Source of the DNA: Enoplolaimus lenunculus
Taxonomy: Eukaryota
Direction of reading: 5' to 3'
Length of the DNA: 64,000 bases
Assembly: GCA_030248215.1 (NCBI GenBank)
Contig: JASANG010000424.1
Coordinates: 124,001 to 188,000 of the forward strand
Position 1 is the first letter of the stretch, and each line of letters begins with the position of its first letter. A model generated the notes under the pieces. That model was given only the letters and a program-made list of their open reading frames with translations. It did no database searches and had not been told where the DNA came from. Positions 1-47,095 of the stretch are shown piece by piece. The translations under genes and the position numbers were made by a program.

Positions 1-155
1 AAGTTGCATACTGAGATTTCACACCATTATTTCGCGTCCCCTCTCGAAATTACGCGTGGTATATGTCCGCTTCATTGCCGCCCTCAGATACCTTCACAAC
101 CGAACAAAGTCCGTCCAAATGTTCACCTGTGCTTGCCCATAACATACGACCCTCG

Positions 156-3100
156 TCATTCAGAAGCCGCACCCTCGTCTTGACACCTACCCCTTGTCGT
201 GATGGCACCCTTTCGACCCGCAGGTCCGCCGTGTTCAGGATCGCCTCCTTTTGATTGATATCGGCCACTTTGATCCAACAGCGAGAAATGTCTAAATTCC
301 AAATCGTTGCCTGCGTTTTCTTGAGGCTTAAACGCAAAGCTTGACGTCATCGCGTTGCTACGTGCGTTTGAACTGCGAACACTAAGTGCAACAACAATTA
401 TAATTGCACATAGAATGACTGCGCTCACAGTAACACTGATAATAATCCAAACGACAGGCGCGGAAGTTTCAAAATTGTCGCCGGACCCGGAATTGTCTGA
501 GTGTTTGAGTGACAGATCCGGCAGGGACACTTTTAATTTGGACCATTTTCGAGGCCGGCGTGTCGTTGTTGTGGGTCCTGAAATGATATTCGATTTTTTA
601 AAGCATAGAGCTTACTATGAACAACGCGCCACAAATTGTAATTTGAGATGAAATAGAAAATATTCATGAAACAAAGGATTCATTTATACAAAGAGTGGAT
701 GATGCATACTTGAACAAGAGTACACAACTGAGTACATTCTGCGTAGAAAAGAGTGTATCTGGCACGCGTTGCGTTTTCGGCCCACCTCTCTTTATTTAGA
801 AGGGTACAACTTGTGCGAACCATGACACTTGATGTATCCGGCAACAAAAATTGCTTCGCTTATAGTTTAAATTATAGCTATTGCATGTGACAGCGACCCA
901 ACTCTAAACAAGGGGGATTCGCTAAAACGCAGTGCCCGGTGGTACATTTTGTACCATGCGGAATCCAAAAACTTGCTCACTCTTGTATCATACACTCTTG
1001 GTTATACTAATGATCCCAGTTCCCTCAAAACGATGATTCCGGCTAAAGGGGGGACAGATATTTATTTGGCCTCCCAGAGGTTACTCCCCTGTGGTTCGGT
1101 TACGGACTGTTATTTATTTTTAACTGACGCTTCGCCACTCTTCGTTACTGATCTATATCCGTTATTGCAATTTTCCGTTGAATTAAACGTTAATGCAAGG
1201 TTATACTTAGGAATGTACATTCAAAACTTAAGTACGCTTTAAAATTTCGAACTCAACTTTATTTGGTCCTAGAGTCATTTATGCGCTACAATTAAGGATA
1301 ATTGACATTTATGAACTATAATTAGTGTTTAATGACTGTATCCGCTTACGGACTCTCACTTGGCATACGGACTCCTATTGACTGAGACTCAAAATGGGGA
1401 CCAACCATCTTATTACCCCCTTATTCGGTTCACTACAGTACGTTTGAAACAAAACAATTTTGATGTTGGTTACCAAAAAACACTTTAAAGTCAACTTTAT
1501 TCAAATAAAATATTTCAAAAAACACCATCATCCTACATTGTGAATTTTGCTAATTTGAAATGGATCAACGGCTTTTGTACACTTTCTTCGCTATTTTGGT
1601 TAGGCTTAGGCTCAGGCTTTGGTTTAGGTTTATGAAAAGGTTGTAGGAATGTTTAAGCCTAAGCATTCTACATTAAAGGAAGTGTGCAAAGGGATGATGC
1701 AGACCTTTCTAAACAAGGGGCCGCATTATACATTATAATAGTGAAAAAAAGCTTGCAAGCGAAGCGAGTAAGAAGCCAAACGCGATTTTAGTAATAAATC
1801 GCATCACAAATTTTCAGTTTTGATCACTGATGGGGGGATGTTGCCTACACTGCAAGAAATAATGAGTCAACTTGAGTCTATCCAAAATATGCTCTACGAG
1901 ACTACACAAACATAGTCAAATTTGACTCCACCAGAGTTAAATTCGACTCACTTAGTCGCATGTTTGACTATGGTGGAGTATCGAATTTGACTCAGTTTGT
2001 GTAATCTCGTAGAGCCTATTTCGGATAGAGTCAATTTGACTCGCTATTTTTGGCAGCGTAGGTGGTATCCTTGGATCCGTTGGATCCGCACGCATATCAA
2101 AATCTAAGTCAACATACCTTGCGAATCTTGTTCTTGTCCCGTGTACTGCAACATTGCACTAACGTTTACACTATGCAACGGGATATCTCGTAATGATTTG
2201 GGTTTATGACACAAAATATCCGCCCTCGATTCGATACGCACTTGACCGACGCCTTGACCGGATGTTACATTTTGATACCATTCAACAAACGGAACTAATT
2301 TTGAATCGCATATAAATGGATTATCTGAAAATGAAATGGTATAAAACCAGAAGGATACCCTTAGCTACTTTCTGAATTTAGGGCAGTTCACCGGTCGAAC
2401 GGATCGTTGTCAGACAGCTTCTTAAGCCTAAACCTAATCATATGCATATTTCTAAATCTAACATTTGTAAGCCTAAGCCTAATAAATGGGCCCATGCAAA
2501 GATAAGGGGTGGAACGTTTTTCTGCGAGAATGCAATTTAGTAAGCTTAAGCTTTAGACTAATTTTTTGCTTAGGCTTAAGTATAACCGCATTGATGCGCT
2601 TAAGCTTAGGAATATGCTCAAACTACAATTACAGCCCTGTTCTATACATTGGCCATATGTCAAGAAAATGACGTCATAATAAACATTTGTATTGCAAGTT
2701 GTCGGGCGACGAATTGTCGTGACACCGTTCGCTGTAATTGTAACGTGACCCCGCATAAAATGGGGGTTTTACCCCCGTGGGCTAATTAAGCTCCTATTTT
2801 ATATTTACTGTTGTATATATATAGACCGTATTTCTAATCCTAAGCCTACGCCTAAGCGTAAGCGAATGAGCTTAAGCCTAAGCCTAAAGCAAAAAATAGC
2901 CTATTAAAGCTTAAGTTTTTATTCTGTTCCAGTTCCACAGAACAACATTCCGCTCCTGATCTTTACTGAAGAAAAAGTTTAATAGCAAAAAATAATATTT
3001 CAAACCAGAAAATGTTAACAAAGAAACAAATTTATGGCTCGCAAGGTATTCTGCTTAATGCTTCAAACTCATTAAAGTCTTAAACGCTCGTTTTAGCTTA

Positions 3101-6100
3101 TTCTATATTTGAATTAAAAACGCCGAAATCGTTATAAATAACAAAAATTTAAGTAAAATGTATCAAATTGAAGGCTTTTCAGACACAAAATGCTACAAAA
3201 TCAAACCTTACCAGCTAATGTAATTTCAGCTAACGCTTCTAACGCACCAAAATCTTCGGCTTCGATCCGCTTTAGTCTCCCGTGGTCCAATTTTAATTTT
3301 CGCAAACTTTTCGGCAACTGGTTAATATCATTTTGAGCAATCGTACCAACGGAAGTTTCACTTAAATCCAACACTCGCAGTGAGTTTGACCGTGTGAATA
3401 CGGCCAGGGATCCGTTTAACGACTTAATTCTAGTTTCAGCTAAAATTAACTGTTCTAAGTTTGCGTCTAAACCTCTAAATGCATGCCGGTCTAAGCGTTT
3501 TAGCGCATACGAGTTGCCAAGTTGCAGTATTCGAACGCTGGGCACCGCAGAGAAAGCGCCTGCAGTTACTGTTTTAATTTCATTTTGACGCAACCCTAAG
3601 TACGTCACGTGGGTCATGTTGCGAAGCCACAGAGGCGACACTTGGGAGATAAAGTTGCCGTCAAGATGTAGTCTTTCGATGCTGGGAGTATCGTCAAATA
3701 CACCAGCGTCTGAAATATGAAGCCCATAACAAGTATAAGGGCCGCTTGACGACGAGACAAGAGAACTGTGAGCGACTGGAAAGCTTAAGCTGAGCATTAG
3801 ACTTAGGATTAGCATTAGGCTTAGGCTTAGGTTAAGGTTTATGCTTAGGGTGCAGGCGCCTATAGTTTACATGGGCCGAAATATGAAGTCATCAACTGTA
3901 TAGACCAGCGGGCCGAGCATAGTCGAAAACTTTGGGCTTACTTCGCCGCTCTCGGCGTCTGGGTACTACACCTCCTAGAATTGCACACTATTAAATTCAC
4001 TGTGTTGATTTTAACTCAAAAAGAGTGAATCACTCAGCCTGAGTTAGTACTATTAGAACTCATAATTTTGAGTTGATTCAATTCATTCTGAGTTAATTAA
4101 CCAACTCACCCAGAGTCAACTCAACTCTGAGTGAGAATCAACTCAACTCAGAGTGAGTTAATGTTTAGTGATATAAATTCAGAAATACCCAACTCGTTAG
4201 CTGAATTGATTAATCAACTTTATTGGAATTTACAGTGCACTTACCTGTATGATTAATTGCGTTCGCTTGTATTGCTAACACTTTGAGCTTCACCAATCCA
4301 AACAGAGATCCAGCTTTAAGTTGAGCGATTTTATTTTGAGATAAATCGAGCAGCGTTAGCTCGTTGAGGCCTCCAAAACTTTCAGTTGGTATTTGTTGAA
4401 TTTGATTTCGAACGAGAGAAAGATTTTTTAAACTGGCCAAATGGCCAATTTCAGCAAAAATTGACTGGTTCAGTTGGTTTGAGGTTAAGATTAACTCGCG
4501 GAGTGAGTTCAGTTGAGCAAGTGTGTCAGGTTCGAACGATGTTATTCGATTTGACGCTAAGTTTAAGTACGTTAGATTTGGTGCGCCCTGAAATTAGCGT
4601 AAGTCTTTTGATTTAATGACATACAAATTTGTTTGAACTGTCTACTCGAAATAGTGACTAGGTTTCTGAAACCCTAATTAAGAAGTACGAGCTACTATTT
4701 TGCCGTCTTGCTCTAATTGAACTTGAAGACTCATGATGCCTCCTAAATATAAAGTAAACCAATGGCTTTCTTGCCATGACAATGGTTCACATTTGACGGT
4801 TATTTGTTTTTGCTCGAAAAGTTAAGTATTTACCGAAATCGACGACTAAAGTTAAGTATAACTTTAGCCAATACTTGAATACGATTTCAGAAACAAAGCC
4901 AGTAATAATATGGTATTGGATGGCTATTGTGACGCGTAAGAACAGTACAAATTTTTCACAGGAAGCTATTTCGTAATCCATCGTTAAGCGTTCAAAATCA
5001 ACCGATATATAAAGGTAAACGCCTTCAATTCAAGATCCACCCGTTCAACTCCAGTTGAAATTTCAGCTGAAATTGAATGGAGATTTTGAACGAAATCGAC
5101 CGATATATAAAGGTAAACACCTTCAATTCAAGATCCACCAGCTCAACTCAAGTTGAAATTTAATTTCAGTTGAAATTGAACGGAGATTTTGAACGAAATC
5201 AACCGATATATAAAGGTAAACGCCTTCAATTCAAAATCCACCAGTTCAACTCAAGTTGAAATTTAATTTCAGTTGAAATTGAATGGAGATTTTGGACGAA
5301 ATCGACCGATATATAAAGGTAAACGCCTTCAATTCAAAATCCACCAGTTCAACTCAAGTTGAAATTTAATTTCAGTTGAAATTGAATGGAGATTTTGGAC
5401 GAAATCGACCGATATATAAAGGTAAACGCCTTCAATTCAAAATCCACCAGTTCAACTCAAGTTGAAATTTAATTTCAGTTGAAATTGAATGGAGATTTTG
5501 GACGAAATCGACCGATATATAAAGGTAAACGCCTTCAATTCAAAATCCACCAGTTCAACTCAAGTTGAAATTTAATTTCAGTTGAAATTGAATGGAGATT
5601 TTGGACGAAATCGACCGATATATAAAAGTAAACACCTTCAATTCAAGATCCACCAGTTCAACTCCAGTTGAAATTTAACTTCCAATAAAATTGAATGGAA
5701 ATTTTGAACGCGTTCTGCTTTGGCCTGTTTTGATGAAACATGAGCCGGTTTGACGACAAGTTGACTGTCAAAATTGAACCCACCTTAAAACTTCCGCTCG
5801 GTATCACCCCTCGTAATCCAGTTTTTGACATAGTAACGGATCGAAGCTGTCTAAAATAGCCTCCATCAAATAGAGCACTCGGCAGCGAATGATTAGCAAA
5901 ATAACACGACGTGAGGGTGAATTTTTTCAATGACGGCTGTAGAGCATCTAGAGCCCCTGGGTCAAATTCTAAAACACCCGACCCCTCACAATTTTCAAAT
6001 TCAATTTCAGAAATGTTCAACGACGAGAATAGTCGTGAGCTGATTCGACTTAAACGCGATGAGTTGTTCGATTGTGGTCGTTGATTGGCTGATAGGCGGA

Positions 6101-12339: not shown

Positions 12340-13533
12340 CAGGGTGTTTCAGAAGTAACTCCCACGACGATCTCTCCCTGAAAAAATCTGTGTTGTAAAA
12401 CTTTACTATAAATACGGAAATTATGCTGAAGTCTCACGCCAGTGGAAAAATCATTTCAACTCAATCCCTCCTATTCGCAAGACGATGACTGATATTATTT
12501 CCAGATTCGAGGACACTGGTAGTGTAGCGGAACGGCTGAGGCCGGGTCGTCCAAGGTCTGCCACAAGTGGGGAGCAGAAAGCTGCATTAAGCGCTGCGGT
12601 ATTCAGGAGCCCCCAGAAGTCAACTCGAAGGACTTCCCTCCAGCTGGGTATTCTCACACTTCCGTTTTTTGCCTTTACAAGGAGCTTAACTTGAAGCCCT
12701 TTCGACCCCGTCTTACCCATGGAATCTCTGATGATGATTTCGATCGCAGAGCCCAGTTTTGTCAGACATTTATGGACATGGTGGAAAGCAGTGCGTTGGA
12801 CCTTGAACGCATTTTGTGGACCGACGAGGCAGTTTTCAAGCTCAATGGTCATGTTAATCGCCATAATTGTTTATTTGTCTGAAGACTATCCACATGTCAC
12901 GATTAGCAAAGAGGTCAACGCCCCTGAAGTCTGTGTTTGGGCCGGAATTTGTTCACACGGCATCGTTGGTCCATTCTTTTTTGGACGGAAATGTCAATAA
13001 AACCAGCTATTTGGAACTTTTATCTGTGAATGTCTACCCGCAAATCGCAACTGAGGACCTTGTTTTCATGCATGACGGAGCCCCAGCTCACTACGCTACC
13101 GAACTCCGCGCTTGGCTGGACGAAAGGTTCCCGAATCGATGGATCGGCCGCAGAGGTACCATCGAGAGGCCAGCTAGGTTACCAGACTTAACTCCGCCTG
13201 ACTTCTTTCTTTGGGGTGTTGCGAAAGAAGATGTTTATGGAAGTAGGGCGAAGGACCCTCAAGAATTGATGACAGAATAAAATCAGCGTTTTCTAAAATT
13301 CCAGTGGACTTATGCGCCAAAGTTTGCCGATCTGTACCATCCGGACTGGAGAAATGCATTCAGCTTGGCGGTGCACAGACAGAGCTGTTCTGAGATCTCT
13401 CGTCGTAATGTAAAGTAAACTTTTAATACTTTTAATACTTGTTTATAATTATACAAAAAACAGGCGAGCTACCTCTGCCCAGTCAACCGATAGTTAGCAT
13501 CAAACAGTCTGTAGTTACTTCTGAAACACCCGG
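12340..13533 (+). mobile_element. Tc1/mariner transposon, DD41D (rosa/Visitor) family, with 21-bp TIRs and TA target-site duplication
   Basis: TA|CAGGGTGTTTCAGAAGTAACT ... AGTTACTTCTGAAACACCCGG|TA (20/21 match), enclosing transposase homology. Confidence 0.93.
12362..13393 (+). pseudogene. Frameshifted DD41D transposase (N-terminal HTH of the DUF4817 type plus DDD catalytic domain)
   Basis: Pieces lie in different frames: SRFEDTGSV...RPGRPRS; ILWTDEAVFKLNGHVNRHNC; VCVWAGICSHGIVGPFFF; FMHDGAPAH...RWIGRRG...PDLTPPDFFLWG. There are 41 residues between the 2nd and 3rd catalytic Asp. Several frameshifts and no start codon. Confidence 0.88.
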
Positions 13534-15501: not shown

Positions 15502-18500
15502 TTAATCCAGATCTGTTGCATTAACAGTCTCGCGTTGCTCAATTTCTTCTGTCGATTCTGCCGTACTTCCGGGAAACATTTTTGGCAGTACGCCAGCGGC
15601 GATTTTAGTCATCGCTTCCATCGGGCTACCAACGATGTAGACCTTATCGCCAGCGCCGGCATTAAACGCCTGCGCGGCAGCCGAAACACTGCTAAGGAGC
15701 GCAAGTTGACGACCGAGTGCGGTCTCTTCTTGCAACCTAGCAGCGTCTCGTCTGCCTTGGGCGATAATACGCTCACGATCTGCATCGCTTTGAGCGCACG
15801 TTGCAATTGTGTCGCGTTCAATGCATGCAGCATCGTAGGCGTTTTTAGCGTCTCCGAGCTGATTCACCCTGTTGGTTCGCATTTGTTCTTCGGCCACTTG
15901 CCGCTGTGTTTCAGCGACCACCAATGCTGTGTTTCGATCAATTTTTGCTTTCGCTTGCTTGTCAAGCTGAAGCTGGACTTCAGGCATCGGCAGAGCGTTG
16001 TTGATGGTTAATTTTGCCACACGGACGCCGTACTCAACCAAATCAGTGTTCAAACTGTCCAAAAGTGTGTCAGTTTGAGCGTTCAAAAAATTTTGAATAG
16101 CGAAATTCATCGTTACCAACGCTCCAACGCCAGGTTCAAACGGCGCCGCCGGAGATGTCTGGACGTCAAACGGCGTCTCCGACAACGTCGTCGTCTCATC
16201 AGGCGCGCTCGGAGTGAGTCTAGACGCCGCGGCGGCGTCTGGACGACGCTTCGAGCGATCCTGACGAGACGCAAGTTTGTCGCTGAAAAACGCGTCATCG
16301 TCTGTCATACAGACGTGTCCGACGCTTTCAGCGAGACAGGATTTAGCGAAACGTAACACCGTACGACGCAGGTTGTCGATGTTACGCGACGCTGAACTGA
16401 TATGAAAATGTTCGTCCTGTTCTGACGCACTCGTGTCGGCGGTGCGTTTCAGTTCCATGACGTTCATCGCTTTGTGTGCCGCCGCTTCTGTGTCCTGAAT
16501 TCGATTACAGAAAATGATAATTTTGACCCACGTAAAGATCACAGGCGGAACGTTTTTCTGCGCGACTGCAATACTGTAAGTTTAAGCTTTAGACTATTTT
16601 TGCTTAGGCTTAGGCTTAGACTACGATATAAGATCACTCTTACAGGTAGGCCAAGGCCGCTCCCATCCAACGGGGGAGGTGCACTGTAGGGCCACTCCCC
16701 CTCGGCTGGTTCTTCCCAAATAGACTCTGTCAAATAGTAAACCATCTTGAATTGCAATTGCAGTGGAACCCCAAAATTATTCGGTGTCCACCGAATATAG
16801 TTTTCTGCGTATGCACGTGAGTGATGCTAAGGCATAGGATTAGGCTTAGGAATATGCTAAATCTACTATTACGGCCCTTTTTATGCACTGGCCAGAATTT
16901 TCTATAATAACTTGCGTATATACATCATTTCACAATTTTTCATATTTTTCTATATCATCATATAATAGTTGCGAAACTATGCAACCTTGCTCTTTACGCA
17001 CAGTATAACTGCACTGTATATTCTAATGAGTTGATTAATCAATTCAGCTAGCGAGTTGGTTATTTCTGAATTAATATCAATAAACATTAGTTTACTCTGG
17101 AGTTGAGTAGATTCTCTCACTCTGAGTTAAGTTGACTCTGGTCGTATCGATTATTAACTAACTCACAATGAATTGAATCAATTCAACATTCTGAGTTCTC
17201 ACAGTCCTAACTCGTACTGGCAAAAAAATACGGTTTTTAACCTTAACACCAAATAAGCTTACAAAAATTTCCCAAAACAACATCGCATCCAAATAGATTA
17301 CCGCGCCGTCTTTGGTTTTGGTTTGCAAATAAATCGCCGGATCTAAACTGCCTTGAGTGACTTGTGGCAGTTCACCGTGAGCTTTCGTCAAACTTGCAAT
17401 ATATTTCGGTACGTCAGTAACAATTCGATCGGTCAAAATTATTTTAGGAACCAATTTGGCAAATTTAAAATTTTCATGACACAAATGATGCTGCATACCG
17501 CCGTTGAGAACGACCGTACGTCCGTTATCAATTGCGATCCCGTCGTACTGATCCGGGATGGTGATCCATTTTTCAGGACCAACTTTAATGTAGAATTGGT
17601 TTAATTTGATAGTGTCTCGAAACTGCATTGTATCACGGATTAAGTGCAATCCTGGCCCGAATATTTTAAACTGTCCATTGTATTCAAATAACGCGATTGT
17701 TCCTTGGTCAACGGTTATGATCGTTAAATCCAGATTGTGTGGCACCTGAACCAACAATTAACAAGGCAATAACGGGTGTTTATTTTTGTGGCCCATGTAT
17801 AGAACACGGCCGGAACAGTAGTATAAGCATATTCCTAAGCCTAAGACCAAGCCTAAGCCTAAGCGCATGGATGAGCCTATTCCTAAGCCTAAGCCTAAGC
17901 CTAAGCCTAAACCTAAGCCTAAGCCTAAACCTAAGCCTAAGCCTAAGCGCAGGGATGAGCTTATTCCTAAACCTAAGCCTAAACCTAAACCTAAGCAAAA
18001 AATTAGTCTAAAGCTTAAACTGACTCTATTATAGCCCTTCCGGAAAACGATCCGGCCCTGTTCTATACATGGGCCATTTTAGTTATCGGATCAACAATTG
18101 TTTGACCAAAAATGGTTTAATTTTGAAAATTTTACCATATTTAGGCTACGATTGAATAATAGTCTCGTTAGCATTCATGCCACTAGTTTATATTTAATTC
18201 GAGTAACTTTTGAACCAGTGAATAAACTTTTAGACAACTGTGTAGACCATTCTATTTATTGATGCAGTTGTTTCCTTTGCTCGTATTCTCAAATGTGTGT
18301 AGTACCTATCACCAGTTGGCGATAGGTCTTGTAACTTTCGAAATAGTGAATGCTCAGGCAAACAGTTTAGCACATTTTTTGCATTTGATGTGCTCTACTT
18401 CTGTATCAATTTAGGGTTCCGCAACTGCAACATTTAGCGATTTTGATAACCTATTACTAACTGACGATAGTTGCAATACACATTTGAGAATATGGACACT

Positions 18501-20301
18501 CATTTCAAACTAATTTGAAAACTTTCGAAACTTTATTGTGATAGTTGCTATAATCATTTAGAAATTTTATACACTGTTTCTGCACATTTCAAGACTGGGG
18601 TTAGGCTTAGTCTTAGGTTTAAGCAAAAGGCTTAAAGCCTTTTTCGAAACAAAAGATCTGAGTGTAAAATCCTGAGCGTGAAATTTGGGATAAAACTGGC
18701 CAAATTCTGAATTGGAGAACACAAATCCAGTATAAAACTACTCGCCTTTTTCTGAAACGAATGAATTTCTTTCAAGCTTCGATAGACGCCCAAAAAGTGA
18801 TAGCCAGGTCCGTAGATTTTAGTTTCAGGTTTGGCAGTCGAATGATCTTCAACCAGCGCAAAATGATTATTGGGTACGACAAATTTAGCCGAATTTGAGT
18901 AGTACAACAGGCATGGAAATGTGACGACAGCGAACGGACAGCAACAGCCGCAGAGTAGGCGACGGACGTCTAACGCAAATTGGCTCGTGTTACCTGGTAT
19001 CATTTGCATCATTTTTTCAATTTCAGCAATTGGTTTGTCTTCTGGTCGATCACAAATCTAAAAGCATTACTGTCTCAGAGTGCCAGATCCCGAGACTACA
19101 CCTTGCGAACATTCTTCCCTGGTGTCGAACACCAAGAACACCCGTCAGAGGTCAGACTTGTGAGTGGATTCAATTGATTCTTAATTTAAAATCAACTCAG
19201 TGGAATTTTCAGTGAACATTACTCCATACAATGGTGTTCAGACATAGACCAGTTATTTCTAAAATTTTCGCTGAAATAAAATTGAAATCACTAGTTCAAT
19301 GTCACGTTGAATTTGTTTAGCCAAGGTAGAATCGAGTTTAAATGTAATTGATTCAAAAATGAATAAAATTTAACTTGAGCCTAAGGTATACTTTACTATC
19401 AAAGACTTAAATCTAATGTGATATTCCAAGTTCATTTGGAAATGTCTGTTTTGCTATAGGTCAATCTATGGCTCTGAGAGTCTTCCATGAACCAATGAAA
19501 ATATCTCTTTTGCTGTAGGCCAATCTATGGGTCTGAGGGCCTTTCATGAACCAATGAAAATATCTCTTTTGCTATAGGCCAATCTATGGCTCCGTAGGGC
19601 CTCCCATGAACCAATGAAAATATCTCTTTTGCTGTAGGCCAATCTATGGCACTGAGGGCCTTTCATGAACCAATGAAAATATCTCTTTTGCTATAGGCCG
19701 ATCTATTGCTCTGAGAGGCTTCCTTGAACCAAAACAGAGGTATTCCGCCAAAACTCTTGCTCGATGCTTAGTTGGAATTTTAAAAATGGGTCATAAGTTT
19801 TACGGTAGAATTTTGCAGAATTTTGATTGGTCGTGTCATCTTTATTTCGGTCAGGCGGTGTTATTGTACCAAAACTATTTGCCAAACGCGCTGCACGATA
19901 CAATTTTTAAAACCACTTATAAATTCACTATCAAAATTATTAAAACCTCTGACAAAAATACTACCAGAGTCGCCGGTTGATTTTCTGACGGACCCGGAAG
20001 CGGACCTACAGTTGCACCCTGGTTCATGGATCATCTACTGACGTGTCACGGTGGGTCACGGATGACATATCGTCACTTGATATCATCTCAGCCGACAAAT
20101 TTCTGGCTATCCATCCAATTTTACCTTATATTGCATTGTAAGTCGGTGTTCAAATTGCCGATAAGCTTCGGTAATATGAACGTCGCGGTCAGCGGCAGAA
20201 TATCTTGTTGTACTTGTGGTTCCAGGCATTGGGTTTGGTCCATGCGTTGAATCTGAATTGACCATTTGGCCCTTTGAATGCGTAAACATCTTCGCTTCCA
20301 T
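15502..20301 (-). CDS. SPFH/band-7 superfamily protein with Cys-rich hydrophobic N-terminal segment, tandem beta-repeats, SPFH domain and C-terminal coiled coil (vacuolin-like architecture), 654 aa. Exons 20301-20125, 19057-18746, 17745-17263, 16494-15502
   Basis: Four exons, all phase 0 (177+312+483+993 nt). SPFH motifs: YLQTKTKDGAVIYLDAMLFWEIFD, IDNLRRTVLRFAKSCLAESVG and LNTDLVEYGVRVAKLTINNALP, followed by an Ala/Glu/Arg coiled coil. Repeats of the form V..G...L...G..KI[YF]GPG.H. Intron 2 donor is AAG|GCGAGT. Confidence 0.85.
17790..18075. mobile_element. MITE family B with a long (GCCTAA)n tract, in intron 2 of the SPFH gene
   Basis: ATTTTTGT|GGCCCATGTATAGAACACGGCCGGA...TCCGGCCCTGTTCTATACATGGGCC|ATTTTAGT. 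Confidence 0.85.
18283..18494. mobile_element. Small TIR element (family H); half copies at about 13880-13955, 33360-33435 and 37722-37755
   Basis: TATTCTCAAATGTG...ACCTATCACCAGTT at left mirrors AACTGACGATAG...CACATTTGAGAATA at right. Confidence 0.55.
19445..19732. repeat. Minisatellite, ~59-bp unit x5, in SPFH intron 1
   Basis: Repeated TTTTGCT[A/G]TAGGCCAATCTATGG.TCTGAGGGCCTTTCATGAACCAATGAAAATATCTC. Confidence 0.9.
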
Positions 20302-21977
20302 TGGTATGACAATTTTTCAAATTTGATTTGTTATATTTTAATTTTTTAAAATTAATTTTAAATTTATTACTTCTGATACTTTTGGTTCTGTAGACCATGT
20401 ATATATTAAAGATCAGGGGCTGAACGTTTTTTTTCGAAATTGCAATAAAGTATTAAGCTGAAAGCTTTAAATAAACTTTTGCTTAGGCTTAGGTATAAGC
20501 TCAATTTTACGCTTAGGCTTAAGCTTAGGCTTAGGTTTGGAAATATGCTTATATTACTGTAACCGTTCTGTTTTTAATACGTAGGCAGGTTCTGGTTTAT
20601 AAAGGTTTTGCACAATTATGCGTTGTTCAAGTAATTCTGAGATATGGCGAATTATTACTAAGCAAGCTTCCGGAATGATAATATTTAATGTGCAGGTAAA
20701 CACACTCTTATTTACAATCAGGTACGATTTACCAATTTGAAAACCAAATCGTTTTAAGACCCCGGATATACCCGCATGGTAAATTGTTCTGCATTGTAAA
20801 TTGCAGTGAGTTGATCTTATCTCAGAATGAGTTGAAAAACTCAGTCTGAATTTGGACTATCAGAACTCAGAGTGTTGAGTTTATTTAATTCAGTCTGAGT
20901 TAATTAATCCACTCACCTACAGTCAACTCAACTAAGAGTGAGAATCAAATGATGTGAGAGTGAGTTAATGTTTAGTGATTTTAATTCAGAAATATTTAAC
21001 TCGCTAGCTGAAATGATTAATCGACTCATTGGAATTTACATTGTGTACAAATAGTGTTGAGGCGGATTCAGAAATTTCTGAAGGGGGCGGGCTGGCAAAC
21101 GTTATGAAACGCAATTTTTACTGTATGCTATACATGCCATAGGCAGCGAAAAATTGTAAGGTAGGCTTAGGGACCTTATCATTTTATCGCAAAATTTCTG
21201 AGACAAAAAATTGTTTTTCTAGAAAAAATTCTAAGGTAACCTTGAACCCATGAGTTCGTGAAAGTACAACAAGAAACGTTAATTGACACTCTCCGAGGGG
21301 TAATTCAATTGATAGCCGAAATTTTCAATTGAACTAAAAAATTTTACCTTACAAAATCCTTTATATCCGTTCAAATTGCGCTGTAAATTCCAATGAGTTG
21401 ATTAATCAATTCAGCTAGCGAGTTGGTCATTTCTGAATTAATAATAGTAAACATTAACTCTCTGTGTCGAGTTGAGTTGATTCTCACTATGAGTTGAGCT
21501 GACTTTGGGTGAGTTTGTTAATTAACTCAGAATGAATCGAATCGACTCAAAATTAAGAGTTCTGATAGTTCTAACTCAGACTGAGTGATTCAACTCATTA
21601 TGAATTAAAATCAACTCACTGAAATTTACAGTGTGCAGATATTTGCAATGGGGATGAATGAAAGCTTGGACGCGCAGAACAATAGTTGAAACTCATCTAA
21701 ATGCAATCCAAAATAAACCAAAAAAGCGTTCAAGACTACTAAAGTTTTACAGTTTGGCAATAATCACAAATATTAATATTGTAACTTCAGTTAATAATCT
21801 TGCTTTAAATAGCTTTTCGACAGTGTTATCAGTTCAAAATTAATTTGAAGATAACAAAGTGATGCGAATGACGTGTTTTCGAATGAATAAGCGCATGACG
21901 TCATTCTGACAAAATCAAAAGTCCATAACGTCATTATGACACCACAAAAAAGCCACAAATCTTTTGACACAATTTTT

Positions 21978-32378: not shown

Positions 32379-32622
32379 GGCCCATGTAAAGATCAGGGAC
32401 GGAACGTTTTTCTGCGGGACTGCAATAGAGTAAGCTTAAGGTTCAGACTAATTTTTTGCTTGGCTTCGGTTTAGACTTAGGCATGAGAATATGCTCATTT
32501 TTACGCTTGCGCTTAGGCTTAGACTTAGGCTTAGGCTTAGGAATATGCTCATTCTTACGCTTAGGCTTAGGCTCAGGAATATGCTTATAATACTGTTTTA
32601 CGCCCTGTTCTTTACATTGGCC
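32379..32622. mobile_element. MITE family B with TTAGGC tracts; other copies near 2489-2654, 10974-11173, 29843-30069, 45340-45683 and 47999-48211
   Basis: GCAAGTCG|GGCCCATGTAAAGATCAGGG...CCCTGTTCTTTACATTGGCC|GCAAATCG. Confidence 0.85.
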
Positions 32623-37155: not shown

Positions 37156-40100
37156 ATGCTACGACTTGTGCTAGGCGTTCCGGTAGCTGTGACCATTATG
37201 CTACTTATGTTAACCGAGCCAGCCTCGTGCGGTAAGGCTTTTATTCTTTTAGACTGTAAATTTCACTGAGATGATTTTAACTCAGAATGAGTTGAATCAA
37301 TCAGCCTGAGTTAGTACTATCAGAACTCAGAACTTTGAGTTGATTCAATTCGTTCTGAGTTAATTAATCAACTCACCCTGAGTCAACTCAACTCAGAGTG
37401 AGTTAATGCTTACTGATATTAATTCAGAAATAACTAACTCGCTAGCTGAAATGATTAATCAACTCATTGAAATTTACAGTGTAGGTACCAGGAAATGCAT
37501 TAATATATTGAAGCACTTCATTTTGTTATTCAAACGTTATATATATTTATGTATATATGTATATATGTATATACATGCCAAAATGTGGCCCCAAGGATCG
37601 GGTCCCCTAAGTGATGATTTTGGGGTCCGCTTTCTTCGTGGTCCGCGAAACAATTTTTTAACTTCGGCCTAAAGTTTCAAAGTTTTATTACCAAAAATAC
37701 TGATAGTTGGAAAATCTTATTTGAAAACCTACTACTAACTGGTGATAAAGTGCTATTTTTATATTTCTTTTTGAATTTTTTTGTTTAAATTTCAGCGTTT
37801 AGAATGAAGCGATTCTTGTTGCCTCACAGAATTGCTCGTACACAACGGTTAGGATTGCCTGGAAGTCGTAAGAATTTGTTAAAATAATTATTTCGCATAT
37901 GCGCAGTACAAAATCTCTACAATACCGTTTAAGGAGCATTCGTTTGTTCACTCGGCAGGCGCTGCTATAATGTTTCATTGGTCATTTTCGACTCTAAACC
38001 GACGTTTGAGTACAAATTGAAATATATGTAATTTGATTCGAGAATGGGTAAAAAATAGAATTTTTAAGAAAACACGCCCGTAGCCAGCTTAGTTTGCTAG
38101 GGAAACTGATCATTTTTCAGAAGGGGAATACAAGTGTTTCCGGCGACTTAAATACTATCAACGTTAAAAATTTTCTGGGGAGGGCATGGCATGCAAAGTT
38201 CCAAGAAGGGGGGCTGAGCCTTACAAGCCCGCACCCCTGGCTACTGGCACGTAAGAAAGTTTAAGGTAAACTATTTCAAATTACTGTCTGTCTTTCAGTG
38301 CCAATGCATTTATACGACAAACGGTTTTTGTTGCCGCACAGAATAGAACGCAAGTCAACTATTGCGGTGTTTGATGGTAAGTGCGTTTTGCCGTTGCCAA
38401 TGGTTCGTCAGATGGGCTCAATCCCCTTGGATAAATTTCGGTGCTCATTAAAAATTAGACCCCATTTGTTAATCACGTAGGCCCATGTATAGAACAGGGC
38501 CGGATTGCTTTCCGGACGGGCTATAATAGAGTCAGTTTAAGCTTTAGACTAATTTTTTTGCTTAGGCTTACGTTTAGGCTTATGAATATGCTTATACTAC
38601 TATTGCGGCCCTGTTCTATACATGGGCCATCATATAAAATCGCCAAATGCGCCGCACGAAATATTCTGCTTCCCTAACCCTAGAAAATTTAGTTGGATAC
38701 GGTGAGGACAAAGGGCATAAGCGAACGATATTGGCTTAGTTGTATAATTCTATGTGATGTTATTGTTAGAATTTATGTTTGATTACACTGAAAAAATGGT
38801 GAATCAAATTGACTCCCTTCGAAATAGGCTCCATGGGACAACATATACTGAGTCAAATTAGACTCGGCCAGAGTCAAACGTGCGACTAAGTGAGTCGAAT
38901 TTGACGCAGTTTGTGTAGTCTCGTAGAGCCCATTTCGGAGAGAATCAATTTGACTCACCATTTTTTGCAGTGTATTTTTTAACAGTAAACTTTTTGCGTC
39001 CATAACCTACGTTTTTCAGCTCGTATCACTCACTTCAAAGTTGAACTTTGCTCAGATCCTGAATTAAATTTGCTTAAAAGTTCAATTAAACTCAACTGCA
39101 AGCTAAATTTTAACACCCAATATTACACTGCGAAACATGGTGAGTCAAATTGACTCTCCGAAATAGGCTTTTACGGACTACACAAATTGAGTCAAATTCG
39201 ACTCTGCGAGAGTCAAATTCGACTCACCAGGAGTCGCTCAGTGAGTCGAACTTGACTCTGGCGGTGTCGAATTTAACTCAGTGTTTGTAGTTCCGAAAAG
39301 CCTATTTAGAGTCAAATTCGACTCACCAGGAGTCGCTCAGCGAGTCGAACTTGACTCTGGCGGAGTCGAATTTAACTCAGTGTTTGTAGTCCCGAAAAGC
39401 CTATTTCCGAGAGAGACTATTTGACTCACCGTTTTTTGCAGCACACAAGCATTTCAGTTCATATTTGTTCTTTTTACACCACATTCCGAGCTAAATCTGA
39501 ACGTGAGTTCAACTTAACTCGACAAAATTGACACTGATAATGTTTCAACCGGGATGTCAGTCATTACAGATGAACCGCACCTGTTGGACAGCGGAACGCC
39601 TCCTCGTAAACGGTTTTTGATCCCTCATCGAATGGAGAAAAAACCGATGATTGTGCGAATTGTGCGCCGAGCGACTGTTCCTACTGAAATTTGGCCGGAA
39701 TACTGTAAGGATAGCCCAATGCTTTTGGACGACGTCCGTCACCGTCCGTCACTATGCGGTATCGTACGCGAATTCGCTCACGTACGATACCATATGGTGA
39801 CGACTGATGACGTAGCAAGTCATATGACATGCTTGGGTGCCTGCCTTGAAAGGTTTTGCCGTTCTAGTATAAGGTCGTGGGTACAGGCCTGCGCAGCATG
39901 GCGGTTAATGATGTGGCGTGGGCGAACTGCACTGCAAATGTCAGTGAGTTGAATTTAACTCAGAATGAGTTAAATCACTCAGCCTGATTTAGGACTGTCA
40001 GAACTCAGAATTTTGAGTTGATTCAACTCATTCTGAGTTAATTAATCAACTCGCTCATAGTCAACTCAACTCAGAATGCGAATCAGCACAACTCAGTGTG

Positions 40101-44163: not shown

Positions 44164-47095
44164 CACTGTAAATTTCGATGAGTTGATTAATCAATTAAGA
44201 AAGCAAATTAGTTATTTCTGGTTATATCTGACTTAATAACAGTAAATGTTAACGCGCTCTGTGTTGATTTAATTGCGGGTGAGTTGTTTTAGCAGAATTC
44301 AGAATTATGAAAGACCAAATCCATAAGTTAGGTTTTTCAGAACTCTGAATTTTTAGTTAATCTATCACATTCGGAGTTAATTAAACAACTTATCAGGTAT
44401 TAAATTAACTCAGTGGGTTAATGGTTACTGTTATAAACTCAAAAATGACCAGAAATAAATAAATTTCTCTCTGAGTTGATTAATCAACTCATTGGACTTA
44501 ACAGTGACACATTTTGATACTTTCAAATTATATGCTTTATTTGGTAACGAATATATTTAAAAACCGTTTGGCAGTCGTCGAATATTTTTTTAATTTGTCC
44601 AAAATATCAGTGTTAACAACAAGTATCACTGTAAATTTCAGTGAATTGATTTTAATTCAGAATGAGTTGAATTACTATGTTTGAGGTAGGACTATCAGAA
44701 CTCAGAATTTTGAGTTGATTGACAATTCATTCAGAGTTAATTAATCGACTCACCCCGAGTCAACTCAACTCAGAGCGAAAATCAACTCAACTCAGAGTGA
44801 TCATCCACTCTTGCTGATATTAATTCAGAAATAACCAACTCGCTAGCTGAATTGATTAATCAACTCATTGCAATTTACAGTGATGGTGATGTTTTTAGTA
44901 TACTTTTTCAAAAATATTGAACCGACACCTATTATAATATATACTATATATCATTAAAAACAGAACTGTGAGTTCCAAATCGGTAAATTATTCAATTTTG
45001 CTTACAATCTGCGCTGTCAAAGAGTATACGAAACTGGCAAACTACCAATAATATTGCTTTGATATTAGAAACCAGACTGCAGAATTAAAGAAAAATATCA
45101 CAGACGAAACAGAGGCCACAAATAGTAATACAACACCTAGAAATAGGTTAGATGAAATAATTTACAAAGTTCAAATCTAAATTATAACCTAAGTTAGGTT
45201 TAAGCCTAAAATTAAAGCGCTGTGGTACACCCAGAACTTGATGGCTATCATGATAACGAATCTTTATAGGCTGTACGTTGTAAATTAGGCTAATGTTACT
45301 TTTAGGACCGTATTGGAAGATTAAGATCATTCCTACGCCGGCCAATGTAAAGAACAGGGGCGGAACAGCATTATGAGCATATATACTCCTAAGCTTAAGC
45401 CTAAACCCAAGCGCAAGAATGAGGATATTTCTAAGCCTAAAGCCTAAGCCTAAGCCTAAGCGTAAGAATGAGCATATTCCTACGCCTAAAGCCTAAGCCT
45501 AAGCCTAAGCGTAAGAATGAGCATATTCCTACGCCTAAAGCCTAAGCCTAAGCCTAAGCGTAAGAATGAGCATATTCCTAAGCCTAAGCCTACGTCTAAA
45601 CCAAGCAAAAAAATTGTCTAAAGCTTAGTCTTCGTCTATTCTAGTCCCGCAAAAAACTTTCCGCTCTGATCTTTACATGGGATCCTAACCCTAATAATCA
45701 TAAGCCTAAGCCTAAGCCAAGCAAAAAATTAGTCTAAAGCGCAAGCTTACTCTACTGCTGTCCCACACAAAAACTTTCCGCCCCTAATTTTTACATGGGC
45801 CCCTAAACATAAGCCTAAGTCTAGCCAAAAAAATATAGTCTAAAACGTCAGCGTAACTATTTTGGAATCACACCAGGAAACAGAACTGTCGTAAAATAGC
45901 ACAGGCCGTAAATTATATAGAACAGTACATCTGTCTTATCCTGTGAGAAGTTTGACCTTTATCTGTAGGTTATGCCGCAAATTCTTTCAGGTCTGTAGCC
46001 AGAGTACGCTCAGTTGCAAAAGGAAAAATCTTGGCCTAAACCCGGAAAAGTTTTAGTGTCGTTTCTAAGCTTGTATGTCAACCACATCCCCCTTGCACCT
46101 AACATTGTTTTGTTTCTCGAACAGGATGAGCAGGCTACACTGTAAATTCCAATGAGTTGATTAAAAAATTCAGCGAGCGAGTTGGTTATTTCTGAATTAA
46201 TATCAGTAGGCATTAACGCACCCTGAGTTGAGTTGTTACTTTGAGTTAAGTTGACTCTAGATAAGGTGATCAATTAACTCAGAGTGAATTGAATTAACTC
46301 AAAATTCTGAGTTCTGATAGTCCTAACTCAGACTGAGTGATTCAATTTATTATGAATTAAATCAACTCACTGAAATTTACAGTGTACAATCCTAAACTCC
46401 TTGCTGCCATTATAAAGGTCAGCTTAGAAAAACCCATATCCATCGTCGAAACTCACTGTTTGGCGACGCGGAGTTGGAATTTCAAAATTGAAAAAATGAA
46501 ACTGAAAATAGCTTGCAACATGTGGACAGGGCTTTTATACACAACTTTCATAAAATACAATTTTGAAAATGTACGCAGTAGGAGACGTGGCATACGTCAT
46601 TTCGAAATATTTATAACAGATATAAAATTTCTCAATTTGACTCTCCATTTTTTTGCAGTGTTCGTACGCCTTCACTGTAAATTCCAATGAGTTATAGTTA
46701 ATCAACTCAGACGGAAAGTTAGTTAATTCTGAGTTAATAACAGTAAACTTTAATTCATTCTGAGTTAACTTGATTCTCACTGTGAGTTGAGTTGACTCCG
46801 TGTGAATTGTTAAACTAAATCATAATGAGTTGAATCAACTCAGAATTGTGAGTTCTGATAGTCCTAACTCAGACTGAGTGATTCAACTCATTTTGAGTTA
46901 AAATCAACTCACTGGAATTTACAGTGTTTGCGCATCATTGGATTCTCACTGTGAGTTGAGTTGACTCCGTGTGAATTGTTAAACTAAATCATAATGAGTT
47001 GAATCAACTCAGAATTGTGAGTTCTGATAGTCCTAACTCAGACTGAGTGATTCAACTCATTTTGAGTTAAAATCAACTCACTGGAATTTACAGTG
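44164..47095. mobile_element. MITE family A copies at about 44164-44506, 44627-44882, 46138-46384 and 46673-46926, plus a duplicated half copy at 46941-47095
   Basis: Family A TIRs and internal repeats. Confidence 0.82.

Follow-up and report, generated by a model that had tools for sequence, protein, structure and literature searches.

A stretch of 64,000 nucleotides from Enoplolaimus lenunculus (contig JASANG010000424.1, positions 124,001 to 188,000 of the forward strand), referred to as the window in the following, carries on its minus strand, from 20301 to 15502, a four-exon gene encoding a divergent protein of the SPFH class. In the reading proposed here, to which a probability of roughly 0.6 is assigned, the gene is intact and its product, which matches the inner half of MVP (the major vault protein), is predicted to assemble into a ring or dome, acylated at cysteines, on the cytosolic face of a membrane. 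The protein is made up of five parts: a Cys-rich hydrophobic anchor, three homologous beta modules (R1, R2 and R3), an SPFH core similar to that of stomatin, a helix some 100 residues long and a short tail. The positions of all features are collected in Table 1.

The four exons contribute 59, 104, 161 and 330 amino acids, for a total of 654, with zero internal stop codons, and a single copy of the gene is present within the window. All peptides quoted in a preliminary description of the locus, prepared from the letters of the DNA alone, were found in place in minus-strand open reading frames (ORFs), and the length coincides exactly with that of the protein described there, provided that a GC donor is used for intron 2. 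The GC, which occupies positions 18744..18745 in place of the usual GT, is backed by homology across the junction. Proteins obtained from homologue searches, labelled P0001, P0002 and so on, were used to evaluate the splice sites. The junction between exons 1 and 2 is crossed unbroken by P0003, the one between exons 2 and 3 by both P0003 and P0001 and the one between exons 3 and 4 by seven proteins; since these transcript-like relatives read through all three, the junctions are not guesswork. Exon 3 is 73% identical to P0001 across 99% of its length, and the N-termini of P0003 and P0010 are close in length to exon 1, with a matching junction of the form ...YK/I.D.PE or ...YK/V.D.PE, where the first slash marks the splice site.

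Two different placements were considered and discarded. A GT donor for intron 2, located 42 nucleotides upstream at GGC/GTCTAT, would remove 14 residues which align to P0003 and P0001 free of gaps. A start of exon 4 at KNVPP... (16557) is contradicted by relatives that read ...FW.I/.DT... directly through.

Comparison with contigs from public sequencing runs revealed a length difference within exon 3. At 17730/17731, the window is missing 18 bases that are present in the contigs from run X1 (depth 22 of 22) and from run X3 (6.87 of 6.87). Read on the coding strand, these bases encode six further in-frame residues, IQAPLG, at the very place where P0001 (..NLIQSTLGDL..) and P0003 are longer than the window protein by six residues. 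Since the run contigs carry these in-frame bases, there is also a form of 660 amino acids, and the copy found in the window represents an allele or else a slip of the assembly. Exon 4 differs from the run contigs at four positions, three of which are synonymous, while the fourth causes the change A412V in the low-complexity loop.

The relationship among the modules was evaluated by cutting three segments from the alignment of 42 family proteins and comparing the resulting profiles to each other. R1 matched R2 at 98.2% (E 5.9e-14), R2 matched R3 at 98.4% (E 4.8e-15) and R1 matched R3 at 92.8% (E 4e-7). In the relatives, the match to the Pfam domain Band_7 (PF01145), which starts from profile position 2, begins at R3, for example at residue 227 of P0010 and at residue 200 of P0022. 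As the modules are homologous and Band_7 starts at the third of them, the three repeats correspond to the first strands of the SPFH domain itself, preceded by two extra copies. When the exons of the window gene were scanned singly, Band_7 scored 12.6 bits in exon 3 (profile positions 2-70) and 15.6 bits in exon 4 (116-175), against a cut-off of 23.6 bits, which is exceeded by P0003 (29.4), P0001 (25.8), P0002 (45.8) and P0010 (64.7). Overall, the domain was matched in 39 of 40 relatives at E<=0.01 and in 39 of 42 members at E<=1, and the family profile detected Escherichia coli QmcA in the PDB with an E value of 6.8e-5.

The fold was analyzed on AlphaFold models of P0003 (predicted local distance difference test, pLDDT, 86; predicted template modeling score, pTM, 0.74) and P0001 (pLDDT 82.8). 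This type of monomer modeling had been suggested in the preliminary description, and in both relatives it yielded an alpha/beta core preceded by three beta modules, each some 50 residues in length, and followed by a helix that spans about 100 residues. The equivalent of R1 is predicted as five strands at residues 106-149 of P0003, and the long helix spans residues 345-431 and 433-452 of P0001. In the helix, 59 of 100 residues of the window protein are identical to P0001, and the region aligns with the MVP cap helix and with SPFH coiled coils. Model confidence is low for the loop of the SPFH core in the relatives and for the C-terminal tail in P0001. Together with the peptides, the profile comparison and the Band_7 matches of the relatives, the models bear out the arrangement originally proposed, namely a Cys-rich segment followed by three repeats, an SPFH domain and a long coiled coil.

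Foldseek searches returned MVP as the first match for both models (for P0003, 6bp7 with E 9.6e-10 over 493 columns; for P0001, E 3.0e-9), followed by stomatin, flotillin, erlin, prohibitin, HflK/C and QmcA, so that the likeness to MVP, initially described as loose, turned out to be stronger than that. In VIA-align comparisons, the core of P0003 superimposed on mouse stomatin 4fvg with Z 12.8 and a root-mean-square deviation (rmsd) of 1.9 over 109 residues, and on Pyrococcus horikoshii stomatin 8gn9 with Z 12.7; as modelled, the core thus has the SPFH alpha/beta fold. MVP chains aligned with Z 9.4-9.7 over 277-288 residues, pairing residues 106/107..519 of the model with 322/323..705 of MVP, a stretch which takes in only the last three MVP repeats. 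Among the solved chains listed, those of MVP are the sole ones in which the modules are covered as well; for stomatin, flotillin, erlin and prohibitin, the alignment does not begin before about residue 195-220 of the model (216-218 for flotillin, with Z 10.8-11.2). As regards the animal SPFH proteins with solved structures, this agrees with the earlier view that the architecture is unlike theirs. By fold, repeat modules, shoulder and cap helix follow one another as in MVP; by sequence, the family is not MVP. Vault and MVP_shoulder are absent from the 25 Pfam families listed for the 42 members (eight others match at most one member each), and in 40 relatives neither of them gave a match at E<=0.01. 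Similarly, the flotillin C-terminal region was not recognized, as Pfam Flot (PF15975) matched 2 of the 42 members with a best E value of 0.33.

The anchor segment corresponds to the hydropathy peak of the whole protein. At least two Cys residues are found within the 40 residues preceding R1 in 27 of the 33 family members which include the N-terminus, while the surrounding sequence varies. In the P0003 model the region forms two short helices, at residues 73-86 and 92-104, and the N-terminal tail is confidently packed. The anchor is predicted to be a re-entrant or monotopic, S-acylated hairpin, which likely leaves the tail and the body of the protein on one side of the membrane.

Two further motifs were noticed ahead of the anchor. 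A Tyr-x-x-hydrophobic motif, YRQF (amino acids 47-50, region of 20161..20163), occupies one aligned column in 24 of the 33 members including the N-terminus, often in the form S-P-A-Y-x-x-L; since the model places it, with good confidence, within a helix, it may be structural rather than a sorting signal. An Asn-Ser/Thr-Ser/Thr motif, GNTS in the window protein, recurs in the family about 15 residues ahead of the Cys cluster.

Table 1. Features of the SPFH gene and of its surroundings. Positions are those of the window; in splice-site sequences, a slash separates exon from intron; aa, amino acids; nt, nucleotides; MITE, miniature inverted-repeat transposable element.
Feature	Positions	Strand	Description
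Exon 1	20125..20301	-	aa 1-59; ATG at 20301; N-terminal tail with conserved ...ITEAYRQF...YK motif; donor AAG/GTAAAA
Intron 1	19058..20124	-	1067 nt, GT-AG
Tandem array in intron 1	19440..19732		59-nt unit, 4.9 copies, 88% matches
Dispersed element in intron 1	19145..19214		about 70 nt
Exon 2	18746..19057	-	aa 60-163; GNTS motif, Cys-rich hydrophobic anchor, beta module R1
Cys-rich hydrophobic anchor	18902..18958	-	LLCGCCCPFAVVTFPCLLY, aa 93-111; 5 Cys, 2 Pro
Beta module R1	18746..18883	-	aa 118-163, FVVPNNHFALVED...IYGPGYHFL...; ends near the junction of exons 2 and 3
Intron 2	17746..18745	-	1000 nt, GC-AG; AAG/GCGAGT ... TTCAG/G
MITE-like element in intron 2	17789..18076		26-nt inverted ends (17789..17814 and 18051..18076) flanking a hexamer array
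Hexamer array in intron 2	17834..17996		CCTAAG/GCCTAA-type (slash between unit variants), 27 copies, 73% matches
Exon 3	17263..17745	-	aa 164-324; R2, R3 and first half of SPFH core; donor TTT/GTAAGC
Beta module R2	17584..17736	-	about aa 167-217, ITVDQGTIALFEYNGQFKIFGPGLHLI...
Beta module R3	17425..17583	-	about aa 218-270, ITIPDQYDGIAIDNGRTVVLNGGMQHHL...; N-terminal strands of the SPFH/Band_7 domain
Intron 3	16495..17262	-	768 nt, GT-AG
Dispersed element in intron 3	17012..17219		about 200 nt
Exon 4	15505..16494	-	330 aa; stop codon TAA at 15502..15504
Exon 4, first part	15976..16494	-	about aa 325-497; remaining SPFH core, low-complexity loop at about aa 395-444
Exon 4, long helix	15676..15975	-	about aa 498-597; predicted oligomerisation region (coiled-coil or cap-helix-like)
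Exon 4, C-terminal tail and stop	15502..15675	-	aa 598-654; conserved GDKVYIVGSP motif
Tandem array just past the stop codon	15048..15395		128-nt unit, 2.7 copies, 89% matches

The relation of the gene to the host genome was evaluated from its introns, each of which holds dispersed repeats recurring many times across the window. For the intron 3 element, at least 15 other window copies of full or nearly full length were detected on both strands, with 73-87% identity, and more partial matches are listed. The intron 2 element reaches a word depth of about 1e6 in the public runs. These runs are three, derive from two samples and may include the source sample of the window itself, so that their agreement with it is to be taken as consistency and not as independent proof. 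In contigs from both samples, exons 2, 3 and 4 are joined to the adjacent introns; no contig covers the exon 1 region 20062..20320 in the three runs, which proves nothing. Word depth in run X1 is 20-35 in the unique parts of the exons, compared to 37.8 in unique flanking sequence and to 1e5-1e6 in the intron repeats. The G+C content at third codon positions ranges between 0.37 and 0.52 in the exons and between 0.40 and 0.50 in neighboring ORFs. Repeats of the TTAGGC type, known as a telomere repeat of nematodes, and the splice sites suggest that the host is a nematode. Contamination as the source of the gene is very unlikely, because the gene sits among high-copy repeats of the host and has a host-like composition; on this point, the preliminary description, which had noted introns filled with host repeats, has held.

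As for the remainder of the window, dozens of partial copies of the MITE-like element of intron 2 are found within it, with look-alikes for example at 45416..45681, 32379..32588 and 38480..38582. A neighboring ORF at 3204..3866 on the minus strand codes for leucine-rich repeats (LRR_8, E 1.7e-27), and six other long ORFs, including one at 12867..13277 that looks transposase-like by eye, matched no Pfam family at E<=0.01. Nothing was found when the window was scanned with Rfam and for tRNA genes.

The size of the family was estimated by a profile search of 1.84 billion (1.84e9) representative sequences, of which 260 were matched at E<=1e-3, with 87 left at a threshold of 1e-10 and 10 at one of 1e-30; as only 260 representatives reach the first threshold, ordinary stomatins and HflK/C proteins are mostly left without a score. 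The third of three homologue searches, started from the 42-row alignment, returned five proteins, all known already. Identity to the window protein is 59.6% for P0001 (over 515 residues), 54.7% for P0008, 50.1% for P0002, 45.3% for P0003, 36.6% for P0010 and 30.2% for P0012. Additional members were sought by pattern scans, which are weak evidence of absence, because each of them looks for two peptide patterns only. Among 185,579 prokaryote species, patterns from the close clade gave 52 matches and those from a protist sub-group gave 8, with none confirmed in either scan; viral contigs gave 157 matches, again with none confirmed. Of 205 matches in metagenome contigs one was confirmed, L001, a transcript-like sequence of 1152 nucleotides with an AATAAA-rich end, which belongs to the P0002 group. 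No description of such a family was found in the literature, as far as it was covered by titles, the starts of abstracts and text passages.

In the phylogenetic tree, the window protein groups with P0001 and P0008 (branch values 91/83), and then with P0003 and P0047 (95/78). The P0002 group, made up of five soil-type sequences, is sister to this set (97/94), followed by P0010, the P0011 group, P0012 and P0018; a quick tree of 60 rows agrees with the more careful one. The close clade includes about 50 representatives, divided into several sub-groups and sharing 45-80% identity. Six relatives (P0016, P0019, P0020, P0025, P0036 and P0065) are short ORFs in which the homologous part is flanked by unrelated residues; as they look like exons called by a prokaryote gene caller, these relatives have introns too. 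One of them, P0019, a member of the P0002 group, starts within one residue of the window junction between exons 3 and 4.

MVP has nine repeat modules. The family shares with it (rat 4v60, human 9bw5 and 9r86) the order of the parts, i.e. tandem beta modules of about 50 residues, an SPFH-like alpha/beta domain and a very long helix, but differs in having three modules, an N-terminal Cys-rich hydrophobic anchor and a core recognizable as Band_7 by sequence, with 10-17% identity. Stomatin (mouse 4fvg, human 9oh9 and 9z7u) and the other SPFH proteins which form cages (flotillin 9bq2 and 9l3g, erlin, prohibitin, HflK/C, QmcA 8z5g) provide the best local match, restricted to the SPFH core. The layout is comparable as well, in that a hydrophobic segment with Pro and Cys comes ahead of the domain, which in turn is followed by helices; the hairpin of stomatin is palmitoylated, according to PMC5456319. 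Unlike in the stomatin subfamily, where the hairpin directly precedes a single SPFH domain, in the family two extra modules sit between the anchor, for which acylation is predicted, and the core, and the N-terminal tail, some 90 residues long, is structured.

For the Dictyostelium vacuolins A, B and C, the comparison was made with their description alone, and points to a similar layout. Extra modules in vacuolins are put forward by the preliminary description only, and no vacuolin-named cluster was found among the look-alike clusters retrieved by language model. In passages of 10.1101/582049, vacuolins are described as having a central PHB domain that carries two cysteines, C-terminal coiled coils which mediate oligomerisation and a tight membrane association. 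Passages of another report (10.1101/872010) describe long bacterial MVP-like proteins from Bacteroidetes and Myxococcales, found by BLAST with human MVP, in which Band 7 has been retained. As far as these passages go, such proteins resemble the family in that N-terminal parts of the vault type occur together with a genuine Band 7 domain and also with a coiled coil; they differ from it in that the family has three modules and an anchor, and the two prokaryote pattern scans confirmed zero members.

SPFH proteins are described, in PMC12624060, as forming rings that close into domes on membranes. On this basis, a possible assembly can be outlined. The Cys-rich hairpin, once S-acylated, would hold the N-terminal tail and the body on the same side of the membrane. 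Given the order of anchor, R1, R2, SPFH domain and helix, R1 and R2 may be stacked as two additional beta layers that separate the SPFH ring from the membrane. The long helices may bundle side by side into a roof, as they do in stomatin, flotillin, HflK/C and vault caps. The resulting enclosure would be taller than ordinary SPFH cages, a sort of half-vault seated on the membrane and fencing off a patch of it.

Several points weigh against the proposed reading. Assembly, acylation and topology are all predicted, with an oligomer geometry drawn from analogy, and the structural evidence comes from models of P0003 and P0001 standing in for the chain of the window, at 45-60% identity. The hydrophobic stretch of 20 residues could be a true transmembrane helix instead of a hairpin. 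No RNA run is listed among the public runs with the locus, and the splicing is deduced from homology across the junctions. Most intron positions of the relatives differ from those of the window, a situation in which fast intron turnover within the close clade would fit. Moreover, organism names are available only for distant members, all of them protists (Diplonema papillatum KAJ9445228.1, Namystynia karyoxenos and MMETSP/EukProt transcripts), and three word-indexed searches of 5.8e9 clusters, NCBI nr and UniRef included, returned no named animal protein, a result that fits transfer or loss alike.

Some of these points find a place in other explanations of the data. The family might derive from MVP by loss of repeats 1-6 and form a soluble vault-like particle rather than a membrane scaffold. 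MVP is in fact the best structural match over the whole chain and the only solved protein listed to cover modules, core and helix; in addition, some look-alike clusters, to be taken as leads only, carry Vault_3 or MVP_shoulder. Such a derivation is nevertheless improbable, considering that Vault and MVP_shoulder are missing from the families listed for the 42 members, whereas 39 of these members match Band_7, that the core fits stomatin (Z 12.8, rmsd 1.9) better than the whole chain fits MVP (Z 9.7, rmsd about 9.4), that the third module is the start of the Band_7 domain itself and that a conserved Cys-rich hydrophobic segment, to our knowledge absent from MVP, lies ahead of the modules. Even less credit can be given to the view that the DNA is a contaminant, the assembly chimeric or the gene dead. 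The missing RNA run and the 18 in-frame bases found in run contigs and not in the window would be in line with such an origin, which is close to refuted by introns filled with elements recurring over the 64 kb, by contigs of two samples joining exons to introns at a depth similar to that of the flanks, by 654 open codons and by the synonymous nature of three of the four differences in exon 4.

The origin of the gene is a separate matter. The likeness to protist proteins proposed at the outset found support, in that all relatives with an organism name are protists and the look-alike clusters, although leads only, belong mostly to Bacillariophyta, Haptophyta and Cercozoa; its extension to some bacteria did not, none having been confirmed in the prokaryote scans. 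These same data, together with the lack of named animal proteins and the fact that we know of no such gene in a model nematode, would agree with a eukaryote-to-eukaryote transfer, in which an ancestor of the nematode-like lineage took up a protist gene that gained introns, host repeats and a host-like composition later on. Such an event is considered unlikely on the whole, though by no means negligible: the composition is that of the host, three introns are present, one of them of the GC-AG type, the close clade is diversified into sub-groups, with introns in several of its members, and one intron position is common to the window and the P0002 group. For these reasons any transfer would have to be old, and no donor clade can be named. 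The diversified intron-bearing clade, the shared intron place and the host-like composition favor a long residence, and slightly better than even odds are given to an ancestry that is old within eukaryotes, with the gene retained patchily in a lineage rich in introns and thinly sampled, as opposed to a recent acquisition; the present analysis does not separate retention from transfer.

The gene described here brings to light a well-folded eukaryotic family of about 260 representatives which has been missed by annotation, including an animal-type, intron-bearing copy. SPFH cages, such as those of stomatin, flotillin, prohibitin, erlin and HflK/C, and the vault share a building plan which was recognized only lately. 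A tentative proposal, possible though on balance doubtful, is that in this family an intermediate form, standing midway from the SPFH cages of membranes to the vault, is still alive: a membrane-anchored half-vault, with a wall grown by duplication of the first beta module of the SPFH domain, old in eukaryotes and surviving here and there among protists as well as in a single, neglected lineage of invertebrates. With repeats that are copies of the first strands of the SPFH domain, a stomatin-like core and a membrane anchor that has been kept, the step from membrane cage to barrel becomes testable. If true, such an intermediate would show how the repeat barrel of MVP came about, and SPFH enclosures would gain a third class of architecture.

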